Positions 1,073 to 63,708 of a stretch of 64,000 nt of DNA are shown here, piece after piece. Location: the NCBI RefSeq assembly GCF_017348835.2, contig NZ_CP071375.1. The stretch is one strand, 5' to 3'. A model generated the notes under the pieces. It ran no database searches and was not told where the DNA came from. It was given only the letters and a program-made list of their open reading frames with translations. Numbering within the stretch: the stretch's first letter is position 1; each line of letters begins with the position of its first letter. The DNA is from Escherichia coli. GTDB taxonomy: Bacteria > Pseudomonadota > Gammaproteobacteria > Enterobacterales > Enterobacteriaceae. The translations under genes were made by a program, and so were the position numbers.

Positions 1073-3352
1073 TTACAGCGGTTGGGTTTGCGCTTCAACC
1101 ACGGCCAGCGCCACCATGTTGACGATACGACGCACCGATGCGATCGGCGTTAACACATGAACCGGTTTCGCCACGCCCATCAGCACCGGACCGACAGTCA
1201 CACCTTCCGAGCTGGAAACGCGCAGTAAGTTGTAACTAATGCGGGCAGCTTCCATGTTCGGCATCACCAGAATATTGGCAGAACCTTTCAAAGGGCTGTC
1301 CGGCATACGGTCGTTGCGAATCGCTTCCACCAGCGCTGCATCGCCGTGCATTTCACCATCAATCATCAGTTCTGGTGCACGTTCCCTGACCAGTTCCAGC
1401 GCCTGACGCATTTTGCTCGACGACGGGCAGTCAGAAGAACCAAAGTTGGAGTGCGACAACAAAGCAACGCGCGGCTCAATACCAAAACGACGGACAGTTT
1501 CTGCCGCCATCAAGGTGATCTCCGCCAGCTCTTCTGCGTCTGGTTCGTCATTGACGTAGGTATCGGCAATAAAGGTGTTACCACTCGGCAGCAGCAGCGC
1601 GTTCATTGCACCTGCGGTGTGAACGCCATCGTGATAACCAAAGACATTTTTCACCACGCTAAAATGTTCATGATAATCACCCACCGTACCGCAAATCATT
1701 GCATCGGCTTCGCCACGCTGAACCATGATCGCGCCGATCACTGTCGGGTTACTGATCAGCGCCCGCTGCGCCTGTTCCTGAGTGACGCCGCGACGCTTCA
1801 TGATCTGGAAGTATTCGGTCCAGTACTCTTTAAAGCGCGGATCGGATTCGTTATTGACGATCTCAAAATCAACGCCCGCTTTGATCTGCAAGCCCAGTTT
1901 CTGAATGCGCATTTCGATCACGTTCGGACGACCGATAAGGATCGGTTTCGCCAGTCCCAGCGTTACCAGTTCCTGAGTGGCATGCAGAACGCGCGCCTCT
2001 TCCCCTTCCGGCAGAACTACGCGCTTCGGCGCTTTGCGAGCCTGGGAGAAAATCGGCTTCATAAACAGGTTGGTTTTGTAAACGAACTCAGTCAGCTTGT
2101 CGATGTAGACGTCGAAATCAGCAATCGGACGCGTCGCCACGCCCGACTCCATCGCCGCTTTCGCGACCGCAGGAGCGATCTTAACGATCAAGCGCGGATC
2201 AAACGGTTTTGGAATGATGTATTCCGGACCAAAGCTCAGATCCTGATCGCCATACGCTGAAGCCACCACTTCGCTCTGTTCCGCATGGGCCAGTTCTGCA
2301 ATCGCGCGTACCGCCGCCAGTTTCATCTCTTCGTTGATGGCGGTTGCGCCAACGTCCAGCGCGCCACGGAAGATAAACGGGAAGCACAGGACGTTGTTCA
2401 CCTGGTTCGGGTAGTCGGAACGGCCGGTACAGATGATGGCATCCGGACGCACTTCTTTCGCCAGCGGCGGCAGAATTTCCGGTTCCGGGTTCGCCAGCGC
2501 CAGGATCATTGGTGCCCGAGCCATTTTCTTCACCATTTCCTGGGTCAGCACTTTCGGGCCGGAACAGCCGAGGAAAATATCCGCACCTTCAATCACATCA
2601 TCGAGGGTACGTTTGCCGTCATCCACCACCGCATATGCGGCTTTGGTTTCCGCCATGTTTGGCTCACGGCCCTGATAGATAACGCCTTTTGAATCGCAAA
2701 CCACGATGTTATGTTTTTGCAGACCCAACGCTACCAGCAGGTTCATACAGGCGATTGCTGCAGCACCCGCGCCGGAAACCACCATACGCACGTCAGAGAT
2801 GTTTTTCTCCACCACGCGCAAGCCGTTGAGGATGGCGGCAGTGCTGATGATTGCCGTGCCGTGCTGATCGTCGTGGAATACCGGAATATTCATCCGCTCG
2901 CGCAGTTTCTGTTCAATATAGAAACATTCTGGCGCTTTAATGTCTTCGAGGTTGATTCCGCCGAAGGTCGGTTCGAGCGCAGCGACGACTTCAATAAATT
3001 TGTCCGGGTCGAGTTCATCAACTTCAATGTCAAATACATCAATTCCGGCGAATTTCTTAAACAGAACGCCCTTGCCTTCCATCACCGGTTTGCCCGCCAG
3101 CGCGCCAATGTTGCCTAACCCCAGCACCGCCGTACCGTTAGAGATCACCGCCACCAGGTTACCGCGCGCGGTATATTTGTAGGCTTTTAACGGGTCTTTT
3201 TCGATTTCAAGACAAGGTGCGGCAACGCCTGGTGAGTAGGCCAGCGCCAGATCGCGCTGCGTTGCCAGAGGCTTGGTTGGAGAAACCTGGATTTTCCCTG
3301 GAACTGGAAATTCATGGAAATCAAGTGCACTTTGTTTTAACTGGTCATCCAT
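1073..3352 (-). CDS. maeB: NADP-dependent malic enzyme (malic-enzyme domain plus PTA-like C-terminal domain)
   Basis: 759-aa track ORF recognisable as MaeB, with K-12 length and synteny with talA-tktB. Confidence 0.96.
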
Positions 3353-3640
3353 TTGGTTGTTCCTTTCACGTAACGTTCACAAATAAAGTGTGTGGGCAAC
3401 AGCCCCTGCCCACAACGTGGCGCACATTATTACCCTGCCGGAGTCTACAGACTTTGAGCAAGTCCAAACTCTCACCATTAATATAATGTTTTGGTAATAA
3501 TCCTATAACACTGATGTTACCTGCTTAATCCAGCAATACCATGCCTGTCTGCTATGCTTTTTTGATGCGTTTAGCGAAATTTCTCAGAAGTGTGAATTAA
3601 CGCACTCATCTAACACTTTACTTTTCAAGGAGTATTTCCT

Positions 3641-4591
3641 ATGAACGAGTTAGACGGCATCAAACAGTTCACCACTGTCGTGGCAGACAGCGGCGATATT
3701 GAGTCCATTCGCCATTATCATCCCCAGGATGCCACCACCAATCCTTCGCTGTTGCTCAAGGCTGCCGGATTATCACAATATGAGCATTTAATAGACGATG
3801 CTATCGCCTGGGGTAAAAAAAATGGCAAGACCCAGGAACAACAGGTGGTCGCAGCGTGTGACAAACTGGCGGTCAATTTCGGTGCTGAAATCCTCAAAAT
3901 CGTACCCGGTCGCGTGTCAACAGAAGTTGATGCACGCCTCTCTTTTGATAAAGAAAAGAGTATTGAGAAGGCGCGCCATCTGGTGGACTTGTATCAGCAA
4001 CAAGGCGTTGAGAAATCACGCATTCTGATCAAACTGGCTTCGACCTGGGAAGGAATTCGCGCGGCAGAAGAGCTGGAAAAAGAAGGTATTAACTGCAACC
4101 TGACGCTGCTGTTTTCTTTTGCACAGGCGCGGGCCTGTGCAGAAGCGGGCGTTTTTCTGATTTCGCCGTTTGTCGGGCGTATTTATGACTGGTATCAGGC
4201 ACGCAAGCCGATGGACCCGTATGTGGTGGAAGAAGATCCAGGCGTTAAATCAGTACGCAATATCTACGACTACTATAAGCAACACCACTATGAAACCATT
4301 GTGATGGGCGCGAGCTTCCGTCGCACCGAACAAATCCTCGCCTTAACCGGCTGCGATCGACTGACTATCGCACCGAATTTGCTGAAGGAGCTGCAGGAAA
4401 AAGTTTCGCCAGTGGTACGTAAATTAATCCCACCTTCTCAGACGTTCCCACGCCCAGCTCCCATGAGCGAAGCGGAGTTCCGTTGGGAGCACAATCAGGA
4501 TGCGATGGCGGTAGAAAAACTGTCTGAAGGCATTCGTCTATTCGCCGTTGATCAACGCAAACTGGAAGATCTTCTTGCCGCCAAACTATAA
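3641..4591 (+). CDS. talA: Transaldolase A
   Basis: 316-aa ORF of the transaldolase family ([23 protein letters not shown]...), followed by tktB as in K-12. Confidence 0.96.
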
Positions 4592-6614: not shown

Positions 6615-6618
6615 TGGT

Positions 6619-6705
6619 GATCGCCGGACGCTGATCGCCGGATGCTGATTGCCGGATGCGACGCTGACGCGTCTTATCCGGCCTACAGCGTCTTATCCGG
6701 TCTAC
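6619..6705. repeat. REP/BIME-type extragenic palindromes, preceded by three tandem 14-bp units GATYGCCGGAYGCK
   Basis: Read directly: GATCGCCGGACGCT GATCGCCGGATGCT GATTGCCGGATGCG, then GCCGGATGCGACGCTGACGCGTCTTATCCGGCCTAC and a second CGTCTTATCCGGTCTAC. Confidence 0.8.
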
Positions 6706-54508: not shown

Positions 54509-54601
54509 CGGTTACCTTCTCCACTTTCACAGAACATAACGGCACTTTGAACCGCCCCGGAAATCCTGGAGACTAAACTCCCTGAGAAAGAGGTAAACAG
54601 G

Positions 54602-54928
54602 ATGACTAAAAATACTCGTTTTTCCCCCGAAGTCCGTCAGCGGGCGATTCGTATGGTTCTGGAAAGTCAGGATGAATATGACTCACAGTGGGCGGCAATT
54701 TGTTCCATTGCCCCAAAGATTGGCTGTACGCCGGAGACTCTGCGTGTCTGGGTTCGCCAGCATGAGCGGGATACCGGGAGTGGTGATGGTGGACTCACCA
54801 CCGCTGAACGTCAGCGTCTGAAAGAGCTGGAACGTGAAAATCGTGAACTGCGCCGCAGTAACGATATCCTTCGCCAGGCTTCCGCTTATTTTGCGAAGGC
54901 GGAGTTCGACCGCCTCTGGAAAAAATAA
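54602..54928 (+). CDS. IS3-family transposase OrfA (HTH/leucine-zipper)
   Basis: 108-aa [26 protein letters not shown]... ending at an A6 run followed by TAA. Confidence 0.95.
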
Positions 54929-55815
54929 TGCCACTGCTGGATAAGCTGCGTGAGCAGTACGGGGTCGGACCGGTATGCAGCGAACTGCATATTGCCCCGT
55001 CAACGTATTACCATTGTCAGCAACAGCGACATCATCCGGATAAACGCAGTGCCCGTGCGCAGCACGATGACTGGCTGAAGAAAGAGATACAGCGCGTATA
55101 CGATGAAAATCACCAGGTATACGGTGTGCGTAAAGTCTGGCGTCAGTTGTTACGGGAAGGTATCAGAGTGGCCAGATGCACTGTGGCACGTCTCATGGCA
55201 GTTATGGGACTTGCCGGTGTTCTCCGGGGTAAAAAGGTCCGCACTACCGTCAGCCGGAAAGCCGTTGCCGCATGCGACCGCGTAAACCGTCAGTTCGTGG
55301 CAGAACGTCCAGACCAGTTGTGGGTGGCTGATTTTACCTGGGTAAGCACATGGCAGGGCTTCGTTTATGTGGCGTTCATCATTGATGTGTTCGCCGGATA
55401 CATCGTGGGATGGCAGGTCTCATCATCCATGGAAACAACATTCGTGCTGGATGCACTGGAGCAGGCGTTGTGGGCCCGTCGGCCGTCCGGCACAATCCAT
55501 CACAGTGATAAAGGTTCTCAGTATGTATCGCTGGCCTACACGCAGCGGCTTAAGGAAGCCGGATTACTGGCATCAACAGGGAGTACTGGCGACTCGTATG
55601 ACAACGCGATGGCTGAGAGCATCAATGGTCTTTACAAAGCGGAGGTAATACACCGTAAGAGCTGGAAAAACCGGACAGAAGTGGAACTGGCCACACTAAC
55701 GTGGGTGGACTGGTATAACAATCGACGATTGCTGGAAAGGCTGGGCCATATTCCTCCGGCAGAAGCAGAAAAAGCTTATTATGCTTCCATCGGAAATAAT
55801 GATCTGGCAGCCTGA
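54928..55815 (+). CDS. IS3-family transposase OrfB (DDE catalytic domain), in the -1 frame relative to OrfA
   Basis: 295-aa ORF with DDE residues in WVADFT, HHSDKGSQY and NAMAESIN. The -1 frame is open from 54862, so an OrfAB fusion by programmed frameshifting at the A6 run is possible. Confidence 0.95.
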   Translation: MPLLDKLREQYGVGPVCSELHIAPSTYYHCQQQRHHPDKRSARAQHDDWLKKEIQRVYDENHQVYGVRKVWRQLLREGIRVARCTVARLMAVMGLAGVLRGKKVRTTVSRKAVAACDRVNRQFVAERPDQLWVADFTWVSTWQGFVYVAFIIDVFAGYIVGWQVSSSMETTFVLDALEQALWARRPSGTIHHSDKGSQYVSLAYTQRLKEAGLLASTGSTGDSYDNAMAESINGLYKAEVIHRKSWKNRTEVELATLTWVDWYNNRRLLERLGHIPPAEAEKAYYASIGNNDLAA

Positions 55816-55857
55816 GTTCACAGATAAAACACTCTCCAGGAAACCCGGGGCGGTTCA

Positions 55858-55964
55858 AACTCGTACAGTGGCGTACCACTGGGGTCCATTCCTTCAAGTC
55901 TCAGGGAAGCCTCTGCTTTGCGGAAGCCCTCAATGCGTAACCGTGTATAGGGAGTCCTAGACAT
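55858..55964 (-). pseudogene. 5' fragment (35 codons) of a VbhA-like (Fic-associated) antitoxin gene, cut by the IS
   Basis: The reverse strand reads AAGGAAAAAC ATG TCT AGG ... = MSRTPYTRLRIEGFRKAEASLRLEGMDPSGTPLYE, running straight into the IS right end. The A.ASLRLEG..PS motif is typical of VbhA-family antitoxins. Confidence 0.55.
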
Positions 55965-57624: not shown

Positions 57625-58419
57625 TCACCAAATTCGCTTCGGGCTTGGTGTATTCTCTCCAGCTAACGCTTTTTCATCAGCGGCTATCTGTTGTGATTCT
57701 TTATCTGCCTGAGCCTGTGCCAGTGTTGCTGCAGCGTTTTGTTGGGCTACCAGAAGTGAGCGGATTTGCAGTAACTGATTTGTCTGTGCACTGGCAAGCT
57801 GGTTTGCCGCCTGAATAGCTTCCATTTGCCCTTGTGCGCCGCTTGCCTGAGTTTGTAATTCGGCAAGATTATCAGCATCGCTCTGCAGGGTGTTCTGCTG
57901 CTCGTCAATTACCTTAAATACTGCGTCATTGGCCTTTTTACGCGCCCCTGAGCTATTCTGTTCAGCTTCACGCAGTGCACTAATTTCAGACGCGGTACAT
58001 TCAACATTGCTGTTAAAGCAAGACGATGTCCTGTAGTAGTTAACATCCTGATAGCGTTTCAGGTACGCATCGAGACTCCCGGCCTGATTCTTGTAGTAAT
58101 TAAGGGTATCCTGCACCTGCAACAATTTATTAATTGTTGAATTTGCCTGGTCCCAGATATAGGCCGCAGGAGCTACGGTGTTCTGCAGCATGTTTTCATA
58201 CTGCTGCAGCTGCGTCTGGTACTGCTGGATTTGTTTAGTCACAGCCTGAACGTTGTTAACTGCGCTGATTGTGGTCTGAACCACATTAGTGCCATCAATA
58301 ACGGGAATTCCGGCCTTCACCGGTAATGCCATGACGGACGCCACGAAAGGAACTATTAAAGCTTTTTTAGCGGCTAAAATCCCTCTTTGTGATGAAACCA
58401 CTCGGAACTTTAAATTCAT
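57625..58419 (-). CDS. trbJ: TrbJ/VirB5-family type IV secretion protein
   Basis: 264-aa ORF with a strong RBS (AAGAGGTGA), a signal peptide and the coiled-coil-rich Q/N-rich sequence typical of P-type TrbJ. Confidence 0.8.
   Translation of the reverse strand: MNLKFRVVSSQRGILAAKKALIVPFVASVMALPVKAGIPVIDGTNVVQTTISAVNNVQAVTKQIQQYQTQLQQYENMLQNTVAPAAYIWDQANSTINKLLQVQDTLNYYKNQAGSLDAYLKRYQDVNYYRTSSCFNSNVECTASEISALREAEQNSSGARKKANDAVFKVIDEQQNTLQSDADNLAELQTQASGAQGQMEAIQAANQLASAQTNQLLQIRSLLVAQQNAAATLAQAQADKESQQIAADEKALAGENTPSPKRIW
58366..58378. promoter_or_regulatory. KorB-operator-like palindrome TTTAGCGGCTAAA inside the 5' end of trbJ
   Basis: An exact 13-mer matching the IncP O_B consensus TTTAGCSGCTAAA lies 41-53 nt downstream of the trbJ ATG. 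Confidence 0.6.
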
Positions 58420-58853: not shown

Positions 58854-58868
58854 ATAGCTCTCCATACA

Positions 58869-58984
58869 GGCGGTAGCCTGGCAGCCTCGCAGAGCAGGAC
58901 GCCCTTGAGCCGCGATGCGGCGAATAGGGAGTGGTAAAGTTGGAACACCGTAGCGGTGGGCCCACTTTACATGTCCTGCCCTGC
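58869..58984 (+). other. IncP-type origin of transfer (oriT); predicted nick between 58978 and 58979 on the + strand
   Basis: The sequence is colinear with the RP4/RK2 oriT as I recall it. It shares an identical 18-mer CAGCCTCGCAGAGCAGGA (58882-58899), GCGAATAGGGA, GGAACACC, the hairpin CACCG-TAG-CGGTG, GGTGGGCC and the nick core GTCCTG/CCC (RP4 ATCCTG/CCC). Its position upstream of traJ is the same as in RP4. Confidence 0.8.
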
Positions 58985-59246
58985 AGTTGCCGTTGTATAT
59001 CTGTGCACGACAATGTGTATTTCAGTGTACAGGATGTGTTTTCTTAGCGTATTAATATAGGATTACTGGAGTAAATTTCTGCAGCAAATGTGTTTTTTGC
59101 AAGGAAACTATATTTCTCCCTTTTGAAAATGACCTTTAGTAGTTATAAATGGACGTCCACCAACTGTATTTATGTTTCGATATATTGTAAGAAGTCTTTC
59201 ATTTTCCGATGCACTTTTTTACTTACCTTGTCAGAGCATGTGCATT

Positions 59247-59271
59247 GCAGATTTTAGCGGCTAAAATCTGC
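59247..59271. promoter_or_regulatory. KorB-operator-like site embedded in a 25-bp perfect palindrome GCAGATTTTAGC-G-GCTAAAATCTGC
   Basis: Read directly. The core TTTAGCGGCTAAA is at 59253-59265, in the non-coding region between oriT and the iterons. Confidence 0.65.
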
Positions 59272-59397
59272 CTCCCTATGCCTAAAGCTAGGGGCGTACC
59301 TCATATGTCATAAAATCTACCTCAAGTGTCAATATACCAAACGTGTAAGTAATCTCTTCTTCTGGCGTACAACCATCGGTCTTTGGCCGATTCTAGA

Positions 59398-59431
59398 TTT
59401 GAAAGCGCCTGCTCAGGCAGGTGATTTCAAA
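59398..59431. other. Imperfect 15-bp inverted repeat (hairpin) next to the iterons; candidate oriV structural element
   Basis: TTTGAAAGCGCCTGC-tcag-GCAGGTGATTTCAAA has 13 of 15 positions complementary. Confidence 0.35.
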
Positions 59432-59481
59432 GCCTGAATATACTGGTTGATCCTGAATAACCTGCAAAGGAGTTAAAAAAT

Positions 59482-59565
59482 CAGGCCTCTGTAGCACACT
59501 GGCGGGCCGTTACAGCACATCACCGGGCCGTAACGACACGTTACCGGGCCGTTGTAGCTCGTTTT
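59482..59565 (+). repeat. Iterons: three good and one degenerate 21-bp direct repeats (candidate IncQ-type oriV)
   Basis: The units start at 59503, 59524 and 59545: CGGGCCGTTACAGCACATCAC, CGGGCCGTAACGACACGTTAC, CGGGCCGTTGTAGCTCGTTTT, with exact 21-bp periodicity. A degenerate unit at 59482 matches 12 of 21. The last unit overlaps the repC-like stop codon. Confidence 0.7.
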
Positions 59566-60314
59566 ATCCTAGAATTTTGTATCTCAATGCCAATCGCTAG
59601 AAATTGTTTGCTATCTTCTTTTAATCTCCGCCGATAGTTACGTAATGTCATATTATTGGTACCTTCACCACTGACAGCTAAAATTAATGTATCAATATGC
59701 CAGCCGCCTTTAGGATCGTGCTTATGTGTTAATATATGACGTGCAACTGCTTGGCTAATACCATGCTGGAGACGAGCAATAGGACCTGGATCATGATGAA
59801 AATGCAAATCTCGCTTCAACAACATTACCAATGCAACACCCAAGCGTACTCTCCATAGGTTACGTTCACCACCAGTTAGAGGATTACGCCTAGTCATTGG
59901 TGAGGGTACGACATGGTCAATTAAACCGCCTAGAATGCAATAACCGTTTTTTTCTAAATCTGGCGTTACTATTTCAACAGTTGCCACACGTAGATCAACG
60001 AGTAGTTTTTTAATTCGATCATAACTGTATTGTGCATCGGATAGAGTTCGGCGTACTTTCGCTGGATCTACTAATAACTCGATTCCTCCATCAGAAATTT
60101 CTCGACGTTTCTCGGCCACATAGAGCATTGTTTCCACAATATCCGCATGACGTTGTCCTAGTCTTCCGGTAACTCGACAACGACCAAAACTAGTCTCCAT
60201 CCACTGCCCCTTCAGCGCCAAGGGACGTTGACTTGGTTGGTACAGAATGACTCTAGCCTGCAGAGCTGTGCTAGTAGGTGTAACTTTATTACCAGTTATC
60301 ATTTTCTGCACCAC
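59541..60314 (-). CDS. repC: IncQ RepC-like iteron-binding replication initiator
   Basis: 257-aa ORF directly downstream of the repA-like gene. The C-terminal half (...HILTHKHDPKGGWHIDTLILAVSG...RNYRRRLKED...) aligns by eye with RSF1010 RepC (...RLCGWIDPGKTGKASIDTLCGYVW...RKRRQRVREA...). The start is either GTG 60314 or ATG 60302. Confidence 0.7.
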   Translation of the reverse strand: MVQKMITGNKVTPTSTALQARVILYQPSQRPLALKGQWMETSFGRCRVTGRLGQRHADIVETMLYVAEKRREISDGGIELLVDPAKVRRTLSDAQYSYDRIKKLLVDLRVATVEIVTPDLEKNGYCILGGLIDHVVPSPMTRRNPLTGGERNLWRVRLGVALVMLLKRDLHFHHDPGPIARLQHGISQAVARHILTHKHDPKGGWHIDTLILAVSGEGTNNMTLRNYRRRLKEDSKQFLAIGIEIQNSRIKRATTAR

Positions 60315-60330
60315 TCAATGAAGACATACA

Positions 60331-61146
60331 TTATTTTGCTATTTGTTTTTTATTCTTCGATTTGAGTTGCGTTATCCTTAATACTCCTCCCTCATGTCTC
60401 TGTAACCAACGTTCTGGCGTACGTTCTCCATAATTTGCTTTATTTATTCCAAATCTAACAAATTGACCTCGAACATCATCAGAAATATCATACGTCTTCG
60501 CTTCTAAGGCGGTCATGCCCGCCAGATAAGATTGCCACCGTATATTATCAACCAGGACGCTACTACCCCTGCTTGCCTGCTGTATATCACCAACTCCCAT
60601 CGTGGCAGAGCCTTTGTTTGAATGGTGTAGAAATATAATCGAACACCCTGTATCAGCAGCAATACCTTCTAGCTTTCCAATGACTTTGGACATTGCTCCG
60701 CTATTATTTTCATCTTCCTGGTGGAAACGGCGAAGAGTATCCAAAATTATTAACCGTCTACTTTTTGAAATCTCATTAATCAAGTTGCTCCAACCTGGCG
60801 AGAAAATATTTGGACACTTCCCTACCAAAGGTTCGACAAGTAGCTTATCAGCAACAATCTGCTGCTGACGTGCTGTTAGATATTTTCCCAAAGCATATAG
60901 ACGATGGTGAATGATGGTTGCAGAGTCCTCCACAGGTAAATATGCCACTAACCCCGTTGGATATTCACCAAAGTTTAAAAGATCTACACCACAAGTAATC
61001 TGCACAGCCAGTTGCAATGCCAGCATTGACTTTCCAACGCCTCCCGGAGAAACAATCGCTCCGATAGTACCAATAGCCAAATTAGGCAAGACGTAATCAA
61101 TTGGTTGCGGCTTAGCTTCAAATGCTTCCATTATGTTCAATGACAT
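60331..61146 (-). CDS. repA: IncQ RepA-like hexameric replicative helicase (RecA/AAA fold)
   Basis: 271-aa ORF. IDYVLPNLAIGTIGAIVSPGGVGKSMLALQLA...LDTLRRFH...IAADTGCSIIFLHH..KG...QQASRGSSVLVDNIRWQSYL is near-colinear with RSF1010 RepA as I recall it. Walker A and B motifs are present. Confidence 0.85.
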   Translation of the reverse strand: MSLNIMEAFEAKPQPIDYVLPNLAIGTIGAIVSPGGVGKSMLALQLAVQITCGVDLLNFGEYPTGLVAYLPVEDSATIIHHRLYALGKYLTARQQQIVADKLLVEPLVGKCPNIFSPGWSNLINEISKSRRLIILDTLRRFHQEDENNSGAMSKVIGKLEGIAADTGCSIIFLHHSNKGSATMGVGDIQQASRGSSVLVDNIRWQSYLAGMTALEAKTYDISDDVRGQFVRFGINKANYGERTPERWLQRHEGGVLRITQLKSKNKKQIAK

Positions 61147-61151
61147 TGCTG

Positions 61152-61382
61152 TTACCTACCTAAAACAATACCGGGTCTGGCTGCTTTAAACATTGCTGAT
61201 TTACGATCCGCAATCCACTGTTCCACTTCGGATAACTGCCATGCAACATTTCGGCTCGTAAGTGCTATACGGCGAGGAAACTCGCCTCGCTGTTCAAGGT
61301 TATAAATAGTGCGGGCTGACAATGGGATCATTTCCAGAAGTGTTTTTCTGTTAATGAGCGTGCTATGTGCCTTTGTTTGCAT
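61152..61382 (-). CDS. alpA: AlpA-family (MerR-type HTH_17) regulator/excisionase
   Basis: The track ORF 61152..61403 is placed at an ATG at 61382 preceded by GGAGGAAGG, giving MQTKAHSTLINRKTLLEMIPLSARTIYNLEQRGEFPRRI.... This is the typical AlpA/Xis motif, located 5 nt upstream of repA. Confidence 0.8.
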   Translation of the reverse strand: MQTKAHSTLINRKTLLEMIPLSARTIYNLEQRGEFPRRIALTSRNVAWQLSEVEQWIADRKSAMFKAARPGIVLGR

Positions 61383-61459
61383 CTGCCTTCCTCCTGTTTC
61401 CAATCAGGCCTATACAATGCCAAGCATTACCACTTGCTAAAACCTATTCATTGGCTAAA

Positions 61460-62431
61460 ATGGTTGACATGAAAATTACTATCTGGGAAGGCTGTGACCT
61501 CACAGTTGCAGCTGCAATTAAATTATTTGTAGAGCGTAGTTCTCCGTACTCCATATTTTCACGGAGGTATCCAATACTGCGTCTCATACAGGAAGTTATT
61601 GATCCAGCAGTAGCTGATTATGTAAATTCCCTGCCACCAAGTCATAAAGACTACATTTCTGGAGTAAATCTAGGATTTAGTGAAGTACTTAAAAAATTGG
61701 GTTTAAACGTCGTAGTACAGGCACAAAGACTTCTTTTGCGTAATTTCGTTCTGACTTTAGATCAACAAACTTCTCTTGATAAATGCTTTACCGCTACGAT
61801 TGAGTCTCTTATTGAATTAGTCAGTGAATGCGCATCCAAGCGGCCGAAGAAATCCTCTCCTGCAAAAGGAGTAACTATAAATTCACAGCGTAAGCTCGGT
61901 TATTGCGAGTTCTGCGGTAATCTAACCGAATTTTCCAAGTTGATCAGTGAGATATCAGAATTTGTTGCTAACGATAATGAGTTCCCCGTTCATGAAAAAC
62001 AGGTCCTTAGTCATCGATATTGTTCTGACCATAGGCCCAAACTCACCAATGGTCTATGGAATCCCAAATACAGACAAGGAAAGCGGTCTCTCGAACAGTT
62101 CAATAAAGAATTAATAAGGCTTAGACGGCAATGCGCTAAACCTCATAAAGCTAACGCAAACACAGGGGATATATTGATTGATACATATTTTCATGAGTGG
62201 ATGCAGGGTCAAACTTTAACCCCAGCAGATCTAGATAAACTTAGGAATATCGCCAGACGAATGGTTGACTCCAAATTCACTGATACTAAGAAAAAAATAA
62301 TCATATTAAAACACCAAGGTTTTAACCAGTTTGAAACCGCACAGGTTTTAGAAAAAAATCACTACACAACTATGACAAAGCAGGCTGTGTCCAAGGCCTT
62401 AGCGTCTGTGAGGAAAGAATTTTATATTTAA
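61460..62431 (+). CDS. Hypothetical protein with a CxxC...CxxH motif and a C-terminal HTH-like (sigma70 region 4/LuxR-like) segment; divergent from alpA
   Basis: The long track ORF 61367..62431 has its first 31 codons overlapping alpA, so I place the start at 61460 or 61469. No good RBS is visible and the start is uncertain. Motifs are GYCEFCG...YCSDH and ...ILKHQGFNQFETAQVLEKNHYTTMTKQAVSKALASVRKEF. Confidence 0.55.
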   Translation: MVDMKITIWEGCDLTVAAAIKLFVERSSPYSIFSRRYPILRLIQEVIDPAVADYVNSLPPSHKDYISGVNLGFSEVLKKLGLNVVVQAQRLLLRNFVLTLDQQTSLDKCFTATIESLIELVSECASKRPKKSSPAKGVTINSQRKLGYCEFCGNLTEFSKLISEISEFVANDNEFPVHEKQVLSHRYCSDHRPKLTNGLWNPKYRQGKRSLEQFNKELIRLRRQCAKPHKANANTGDILIDTYFHEWMQGQTLTPADLDKLRNIARRMVDSKFTDTKKKIIILKHQGFNQFETAQVLEKNHYTTMTKQAVSKALASVRKEFYI

Positions 62432-62853: not shown

Positions 62854-62872
62854 AATTTTAGCAGCTAAAATT
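62854..62872. promoter_or_regulatory. KorB-operator-like palindrome, variant centre (AATTTTAGC-A-GCTAAAATT)
   Basis: A 9-1-9 perfect palindrome is read directly with core TTTAGCAGCTAAA at 62857-62869, in a non-coding gap. Confidence 0.55.
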
Positions 62873-63689: not shown

Positions 63690-63708
63690 AATTTTAGCGG
63701 CTAAAATT
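63690..63708. promoter_or_regulatory. KorB-operator-like palindrome AATTTTAGC-G-GCTAAAATT upstream of the membrane-protein gene
   Basis: A 9-1-9 perfect palindrome has its core TTTAGCGGCTAAA at 63693-63705. It lies 52-70 nt upstream of the GTG at 63638 and 54 nt downstream of the int stop. Confidence 0.65.

Follow-up and report, generated by a model that had tools for sequence, protein, structure and literature searches.

Direct repeats at the end of a putative initiator gene as the likely replication origin of a PIME1-type island in Escherichia coli

On the chromosome of an E. coli strain, four direct repeats of 21 bp overlap the 3' end of a gene whose product is described in RefSeq as a hypothetical protein, which raises the question of what these repeats do. 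A sequence-only reading had taken them for the iterons of an IncQ-type oriV, bound by a RepC-like protein and allowing the excised island to replicate. In this work, the window (the whole stretch of 64,000 nucleotides that was analysed) was compared with related loci, and the repeats are very probably the oriV iterons of a small integrative mobilizable element of the PIME1 type inserted at guaA. According to the text of a preprint on this family, the presence of an IncP plasmid allows PIME1 elements to be excised, replicated, and mobilized, and a Morganella PIME1 carries four iterons downstream of repA. The cloned repA-oriV region rescued a temperature-sensitive vector, whereas repA or oriV mutants did not; furthermore, a PIME1 repA mutant was transferred poorly, and PIME-pB10 interference was reported (bioRxiv 10.64898/2026.01.12.698999). 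The preprint text gives no iteron sequence and makes no mention of the 257-aa gene considered here or of its fold, so we infer identity with its oriV from the anatomy of the locus.

The island at guaA

The window is 100% identical to E. coli strain PE164 over ppk and the rep region, and its genes follow the order purM, purN, ppk, ppx, pdeF, and yfgG, then an IS3-family element and the island up to guaA. Read along the minus strand, the island consists of int, a 209-aa ORF beside int with no family match, a divergent luxR-family gene, alpA, repA, the gene for a 257-aa protein, traJ, trbJ, an ORF in the trbK position encoding a small lipoprotein of 63 aa, and trbL. The integrase C-terminus is encoded at 63762->64000, and int adjoins guaA in the 100%-identical PE164 record. 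The divergent ORF (61367-62431, plus strand, 354 aa) has its RefSeq start at 61460 and is annotated as a LuxR family regulator. The traJ product was recognized as NikA-like/TraJ (NCBIfam 2.6e-47) and TrbL was identified, and the T4SS/TrbJ match was weak. The features needed for the argument are the following:

54600-55859 (2237-3680 in locus L099): IS3-family element with a transposase ORF at 54928-55815, abutting the island just beyond trbL
58934-58985: IncP-type oriT just upstream of traJ, with a 17-nt inverted repeat (58934-58950/58954-58970) followed by ATGTCCTGCCC
59541..60314, minus strand: gene for the 257-aa putative iteron-binding initiator, its last 7 codons (KRATTAR*) lying within iteron 1
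60331..61146, minus strand: repA, encoding an IncQ (RSF1010)-type hexameric helicase (Pfam AAA_25 9e-29; PDB 1g8y)
61152..61403, minus strand: alpA-family regulator gene, the first of the alpA-repA-initiator string (Pfam Phage_AlpA 7.5e-13; RefSeq)

The island shares with PIME1MmNCTC12028, as described in the preprint text (Perta et al., bioRxiv 2026), the guaA site, int, divergent alpA/luxR, repA, traJ, trbJ, trbL, and an IncP-like oriT. With these features and four iterons downstream of the rep genes, it is a PIME1-type integrative mobilizable element at guaA. Unlike PIME1MmNCTC12028, it is truncated by the IS3 element, has neither traI nor an accessory region, and yielded no DnaA box. The traJ-traK intergenic region of IncP plasmid pDS1, GIsul2, and a Morganella island could each be aligned with the oriT region, whose conserved nick region reads ...CTTyAC..TGTCCTGCCC; by analogy with RP4, the nick presumably falls after 58978.

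Matches to the IncP-1 KorB operator OB TTTAGCSGCTAAA were observed at 58366-58378, 59253-59265, 62857-62869, and 63693-63705, three of them exact and one with 1 mismatch. All four lie within the island, against 0.11 expected by chance, and one belongs to a perfect palindrome (59247-59271) about 230 bp from the iterons. The OB core TTTTAGCGGCTAAAA is the OB oligonucleotide used for RK2 KorB in the source consulted (PMC11790492). Exact OB sites were present in 55 of the 99 fetched loci, including the GIsul2, Morganella, P. aeruginosa, and Verticiella islands, and none were found in the non-PIME contexts L014, L015, and L017. KorB is not mentioned in the text of the PIME preprint (bioRxiv 10.64898/2026.01.12.698999), and a literature search found no paper linking KorB to these islands. 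The OB sites may serve the island for sensing of the helper, for silencing, or for hijacking of partition.

The window island is short, about 9-10 kb. Homology to the Dickeya, Phytobacter, and Shigella islands stops at 55859 beside the IS3 element, and the relatives continue past this point. In PE164, yfgG directly follows the IS, and none of the chromosomal genes that separate yfgG from guaA is annotated at this place; moreover, no second copy of the guaA 3' end (attR) was found in 15.5 kb. The IS3 truncation and the lack of a detectable attR make excision of this copy doubtful; the island has most likely lost its far end together with attR, so that normal excision is not possible. On the other hand, repA and the initiator gene are full-length and the origin sequences are intact. 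The island in the window is a truncated and probably immobile remnant, its origin probably stranded in the chromosome. The earlier expectation that the excised island replicates autonomously may not hold for the window copy, which is truncated, with no attR found; furthermore, the PIME1 relative in the preprint text needs an IncP helper and excision to replicate and so is not simply autonomous.

The repeat array and its neighbourhood

The array was recovered on the minus strand at 59479..59562 by TRF, a direct-repeat search, a self-match scan, and comparison with relatives. In the register of the family, on the minus strand, its units are:

59542-59562: iteron unit 1, ACGAGCTACAACGGCCCGGTA
59521-59541: iteron unit 2, ACGTGTCGTTACGGCCCGGTG
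59500-59520: iteron unit 3, ATGTGCTGTAACGGCCCGCCA
59479-59499: iteron unit 4, GTGTGCTACAGAGGCCTGATT

The phasing of the four units is exactly 21 bp, three being good and one degenerate. The units beginning with CGGGCCGT that had been placed at 59503, 59524, and 59545 were recovered by the direct-repeat search with a spacing of 21/21. The tandem-repeat search suggested earlier for 59.3-59.7 kb was run as TRF on 58-62 kb and returned a single array (59503-59553, period 21, 2.4 copies, 80% matches). The fourth unit, 59482-59502 in the earlier register, matches its neighbour at 12 of 21 positions and is taken as real because relatives hold a well-conserved unit at the same position. The repeat unit at that end does carry the last codons of the initiator gene, AAA CGA GCT ACA ACG GCC CGG TAA (KRATTAR and a stop), as the sequence-only reading had stated.

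The period-21 self-match score peaks at 31/42 positions at 59484-59503, against a window mean of 11.4 (sd 3.1), and all scores of at least 29 (of 42) in the 64-kb window fall within the array. In 100 simulated 64-kb sequences with pooled periods of 12-39, the maxima had a mean of 0.66 and a largest value of 0.77, compared with 0.69-0.74 of positions matching in the array; the simulated maxima bracket the observed score, so this control fails to tell the array from chance. The 8-mer CGGGCCGT is not significant by itself (5 copies in the window vs. 2.3 expected), and the signal of the array therefore lies in its phasing and, above all, in its conservation in relatives. No second repeat array was found in the island. 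Elsewhere in the window, at about 6618-6660, a period-14 self-match over 26/28 positions is the strongest short tandem signal outside the array. A promoter scan was uninformative (11 promoter-like sites vs. 8.7 expected), and the single terminator call was iteron 1 itself, on the plus strand and antisense to the initiator gene.

For the comparison with relatives, 8 genome loci, 6 loci of more distant homologs, and 80 metagenome loci were used, with 62-100% protein identity. TRF found an array with a 21-bp period at the 3' end of the initiator homolog in 70 of 74 distinct downstream regions. The four misses were L035 with three iterons, where the assigned stop codon lay too far downstream (such overshoot occurred in 3 loci), L094 with a degenerate four-unit array, and L040 and L050 with one iteron each. 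In these last two metagenome loci (at about 3244-3270), the initiator ORF reads through into the origin, and the single iteron could result from an inter-repeat deletion or from assembly collapse. An anchored scan of 64 distinct arrays gave 4 copies in 50, 5 in 6, 3 in 5, 2 in 1, and 1 in 2, with a spacing of 21 nt in 239 cases and 20 nt in 15. The family consensus on the gene-sense strand is GCGTGyCACAsCGGCCCGATA. Repeats have a median identity of 0.83 within an array and 0.72 between arrays; 93% of arrays are uniform at position 5 and 97% at position 13, and the base at both positions differs from array to array. Such concerted evolution is the pattern that would be expected for sites read by one protein. 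Furthermore, the arrays accompany the pair of RepA and 257-aa genes into non-PIME contexts without traJ, namely a Hahella chromosome, a resolvase-bearing metagenome contig, and a Salinimonas element adjoining a coupling protein gene (L014, L015, L017). The arrays are thus part of the replication module and not of the transfer module.

Beyond the iterons, the origin region contains the following elements:

59464..59478, minus strand: T-rich spacer TTTTTTAACTCCTTTG between the last iteron and the short repeats, from the alignment of relatives
59433..59464, minus strand: short direct repeats of 9-11 bp of the CAGGATAT type, here CAGGTTAT TCAGGATCAA CCAGTATAT TCAGG
59390..59439: imperfect hairpin in which an internal mismatch separates the lower stem from the upper one, with a loop of 4 nt, from folding and relatives
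59356..59392, minus strand: conserved block AATCGGCCAAAGaCCGATGGTTgtACGCCAGAAGAAG with a small stem-loop, common to GIsul2 and other PIMEs

The T-rich spacer occurs in most class-A relatives and is missing in others. In 46 aligned relatives, 2-3 nearly invariant copies of (T)CAGGATAT follow the iterons or the spacer with a period of 9-11 bp; the pattern is unique in the window, where 0.02 matches are expected, and the short repeats are a candidate unwinding or helicase-entry region. The hairpin noted to the left of the repeats was confirmed, with arms of 23 nt (59390-59412 / 59417-59439) that are 78% complementary. It was found in 37 distinct sequences among the 46 relatives with its shape kept (4-5-nt loop) and a median folding z of -2.8, as judged by per-sequence folds and z-scores against a control segment that also holds a hairpin and so is not clean; the window copy alone is unremarkable (z = -1.9). 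We regard the hairpin as a candidate priming signal. The "AT-rich tract" described at this side is present, but its richness is moderate, 57-67% over 59420-59480. Another interpretation was rejected, in which the hairpin at 59390-59439 and the GATCCTG after it would be the inverted repeat and nick site of the oriT: the IncP-homologous oriT is at 58934-58985, and the CCTGAAT motifs form part of the short-repeat block conserved in the origin.

The array directly adjoins the short-repeat and hairpin module in all contexts, the non-PIME ones included. The block AATCGGCCAwAGGCCGATGGTTtaACGCCAAGAAG is kept between PIME1 islands and GIsul2 (L001 4712-4760; L010 8905-8950) despite their differing initiators and iterons, and the conserved stem-loop block is absent from the non-PIME members of the replicon family. 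The same layout, with four iterons past the rep genes and a direct repeat and a pair of inverted repeats beyond them, is described for the oriV of PIME1MmNCTC12028 in the preprint text. Another Morganella morganii island of this type (L010) has an initiator 66% identical to that of the window, and behind the initiator gene lie four repeats of 21 bp, then CAGGAT as a direct repeat, and two hairpins; the island has no traI within its 16.8-kb locus and is therefore not PIME1MmNCTC12028 itself.

The putative initiator and the IncQ comparison

The RefSeq version of the 257-aa ORF is a hypothetical protein of 253 aa starting at M5. Searches of Pfam, NCBIfam, and PDB sequences with the protein and its profiles gave nothing meaningful, and the Pfam RepC family (PF06504) matched neither the protein nor any of 76 relatives. 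With RepC of GIsul2 as the IncQ-type reference, BLASTP gave a non-significant E of 0.64, and hhalign against the RepC profile gave a probability of 9-23%, with the C-terminal halves collinear over 131 columns (P=9e-4). The predicted fold is the dual winged-helix of iteron initiators, with RctB and Pi as the best matches, and the modelled RepC of GIsul2 has the same top structural neighbours. Thus, the earlier designation "RepC-like" is apt for function, position, and fold class, and does not extend to sequence identity as an IncQ RepC according to PF06504, NCBIfam, BLASTP, and hhalign. The protein resembles Pi (R6K), RepE (F), RepA (pPS10), and the RctB core in its predicted pair of winged helices (the WH1-WH2 fold of the Rep_3/Pi/RepE class at iteron-type theta origins), that is, in fold class only; it differs from them in having no sequence similarity, in being accompanied by its own helicase instead of relying on host DnaB, and in the absence of a DnaA box. 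The family comprises 445 clusters at 50% identity. Many public records, among them the homologs P0008, P0009, and P0011 and a protein of E. coli H29, carry the name "ABC transporter ATPase". We doubt this label because both fold and context point to a replication initiator, and it is probably a propagated misannotation.

Covariation between protein residues and iteron bases was examined in 61 distinct protein/array pairs, with statistics that ignore phylogeny. At residue 100 (start of helix 98-110), R accompanies G13 in 34 of 35 arrays, and Q, H, or G accompanies C13 in 26 of 26; sister sequences that differ at this residue read HDRILKL with G13 and HDHILKL with C13. In helix 221-233, residue 222 is K with C5 (20/20), M/Q/V/T with G5 (38/38), and S/Q with T5 (3/3). 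Residue 226 is D with G6 in 12/12, and residue 229 is R in 34 of the 38 G5 arrays and never in other arrays. The residue and base switches recur across interleaved clades, and both tracking regions are the predicted recognition helices of the protein. In the window protein, R100, M222, N226, and R229 fit the GTG and CGGCCCG parts kept in the units. There is thus good computational evidence that the 257-aa protein would read the iterons with one winged helix per half-site. Residue 253 also tracks position 6, but trivially so, since codon 253 belongs to iteron 1: the first iteron lies inside the last seven codons of the initiator gene, so the DNA site dictates the protein tail, and KRVT, KRAT, KRLT, or KRFT goes with GTC, GCC, CTC, or TTC.

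In IncQ replicons, a dedicated initiator whose gene lies just upstream binds 3-4 direct iterons of 20-22 bp, and an easily opened segment and a hairpin are found alongside. The locus in the window has four iterons of 21 bp, a flank with 57-67% AT, one structurally conserved hairpin, and a smaller stem-loop. Its RepA matches RSF1010 RepA (PDB 1g8y) over residues 3-266 with E=4.3e-110 and is 62% identical to RepA of GIsul2; in 79 of 79 loci, the gene immediately upstream of the initiator gene and on its strand encodes a RepA homolog. The locus in the window resembles the IncQ systems (RSF1010/R1162, pTF-FC2) in its RSF1010-type RepA and in its iterons with the initiator gene upstream and a hairpin alongside. 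Unlike them, it has no recognisable RepC. Family scans of the island ORFs other than the 63-aa one in the trbK position found no primase, and neither a GC-rich block nor an ssiA/ssiB pair of opposite-strand hairpins was evident beside the iterons. Over 58866-59600, there was no match to the DnaA box TTATCCACA with up to 2 mismatches and no IHF site was found. The analogy to an IncQ oriV drawn in the sequence-only reading consequently stands for the RSF1010-type RepA and the iterons, and falls short for a RepB-type primase gene, the GC-rich block, and the ssi pair. A further difference is that this replicon sits in an integrative element and, according to the preprint text, fires only after helper-induced excision.

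A closely related layout is that of GIsul2 (Nigro & Hall 2011; Harmer et al. 2017, both as cited in PMC5704250), which also has int-alpA-repA-initiator-...-trbJ-trbK-trbL at guaA and iterons that overlap the 3' end of the initiator gene, as well as the AATCGGCC..GCCGATGGTT..ACGCCA block, an IncP-type oriT, and a KorB operator. In contrast to the window island, the initiator of GIsul2 is a genuine IncQ-type RepC (PF06504, 293 aa), and its iterons are unrelated in sequence: in pAB3 (L001 4910-4978), they form 22-bp x 3.1 direct repeats with the consensus GGGGAACGTTACGACGGCAAAA, overlapping the repC 3' end. The island is also comparable to SGI1, which is described as an integrative mobilizable element with an iteron-type oriV firing after helper-induced excision, but whose initiator belongs to Rep_3, whose helper is IncC acting via AcaCD, and whose origin sequence is different (PMC7433901).

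Alternative readings, a possible mechanism, and meaning

The oriV reading of the repeats is supported by the conservation of the array, by the residue-base covariation, by the predicted fold of the initiator, and by the replication that the preprint text reports for the equivalent PIME1 locus. A related reading is that the array is the family oriV by descent but has become vestigial in this lineage or copy, with decayed iterons, no excision, and no firing. The mean pairwise identity of the window array (0.61) is indeed among the lowest of 61 arrays, and units 2 and 3 have lost the CACA box, reading CGTT and TGTA where A, C, and A occupy positions 8-10 in 92-97% of the family units (n=245); the end of the island at IS3 (55859), the genes between yfgG and guaA not annotated here, and the lack of a second guaA 3' end point the same way. 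However, the same degenerate array, with 98-100% protein identity, was found in Dickeya, Phytobacter, Citrobacter, and gut metagenomes, and this spread across genera indicates recent horizontal transfer of the lineage. Moreover, the array of one Morganella island is just as degenerate (0.60), and the preprint text reports replication for a Morganella PIME1, possibly a distinct element. The full-length repA and initiator genes and the match of R100, M222, N226, and R229 to the kept GTG and CGGCCCG parts also speak against decay, and we consider a vestigial origin somewhat unlikely. If the 257-aa protein were a divergent RepC, the locus would be a true IncQ-family replicon with ssi sites. The very close relation of RepA to RSF1010 RepA (E=4e-110), the PF06504 RepC in the same position and with the same iteron layout in the sister island GIsul2, the C-terminal collinearity in hhalign (131 columns, P=9e-4), and the shared structural neighbours of both models would agree with this. 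The 76 family members free of a Pfam RepC or NCBIfam match, the BLASTP (E=0.64) and hhalign (9-23%) results against RepC, and the absence of a RepB primase gene and of an evident pair of oppositely oriented ssi hairpins weigh against it, which leaves such a replicon improbable.

Iteron arrays outside origins serve as copy-control sites in other plasmids, and the repeats might likewise be initiator-bound control sites for copy control, handcuffing, or feedback on transcription or translation, with the true origin elsewhere. Protein bound to the first iteron, which reaches into the end of the coding sequence, could stop read-through. This possibility is very doubtful, as the array is the only one in the island and adjoins the conserved short-repeat/hairpin module in all contexts, and as the origin mutation at the equivalent locus abolishes replication in the preprint text. 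Hardly credible is a role of the repeats in transfer, in which TraJ or other relaxosome proteins would bind them as part of the oriT: they do share the 675-bp intergenic region between the 257-aa gene and traJ with the oriT, but the IncP-type oriT, with its inverted repeat (58934-58970) and nick region ATGTCCTGCCC, lies at a distance of about 500 bp, the arrays stay with the RepA/initiator pair in the traJ-less contexts L014, L015, and L017, and they co-vary with the initiator and not with TraJ.

We hypothesize that the repeats, as oriV iterons, function as follows. An IncP helper would induce excision, with expression of the alpA-repA-initiator string; induction and excision are known from the relative described in the preprint text. 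Monomers of the 257-aa dual winged-helix protein would then bind the four iterons, as fold and covariation suggest, and since a spacing of 21 bp corresponds to two helical turns, the bound proteins would all lie on one face of the DNA. On the same grounds, the C-terminal winged helix (helix 221-233) is predicted to read iteron positions 3-7, and the N-terminal one (helix 98-110) positions 11-14. The nucleoprotein complex may open the adjoining T-rich and CAGGATAT-repeat segment, at which the RSF1010-type RepA, whose identity as a helicase is shown by its matches, could be loaded. Priming might take place at or near the structurally conserved hairpin, which is the weakest step; the island itself encodes no primase, so a host or helper enzyme would have to supply this activity.

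The origin of this family is already described and tested in the preprint text, so the oriV reading is right but not new. What may be new beyond that text is the assignment of an initiator and of the code by which it recognizes its sites, together with the KorB operators. With slightly more doubt than confidence, we propose that the 257-aa protein defines a large unannotated family of dual winged-helix initiators, for which Pfam and NCBIfam have no model, strictly paired with an IncQ-type RepA and without a RepB primase, i.e., a "primase-less IncQ-like" replicon travelling in IMEs and ICEs. Under this tentative proposal, its specificity would be readable from sequence (residue 100 for position 13; residues 222, 226, and 229 for positions 5-6), and its first binding site would be written into its own last codons. 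In PIMEs, the origin would sit among operators for the KorB of the IncP helper, so the excised replicon might be silenced, sensed, or partitioned by helper KorB, which possibly underlies the PIME-pB10 interference.

For the window itself, the gain is mainly a correct annotation, with an origin, a likely initiator, and a helicase where RefSeq says "hypothetical protein". By replicating once excised, mobilizable islands are able to persist and to be transferred efficiently. With the candidate recognition code, it could become possible to sort roughly a thousand PIMEs into predicted groups of incompatibility or cross-talk, and the IncP KorB operators within the island are a possible route by which such elements sense the helper or hijack its partition.
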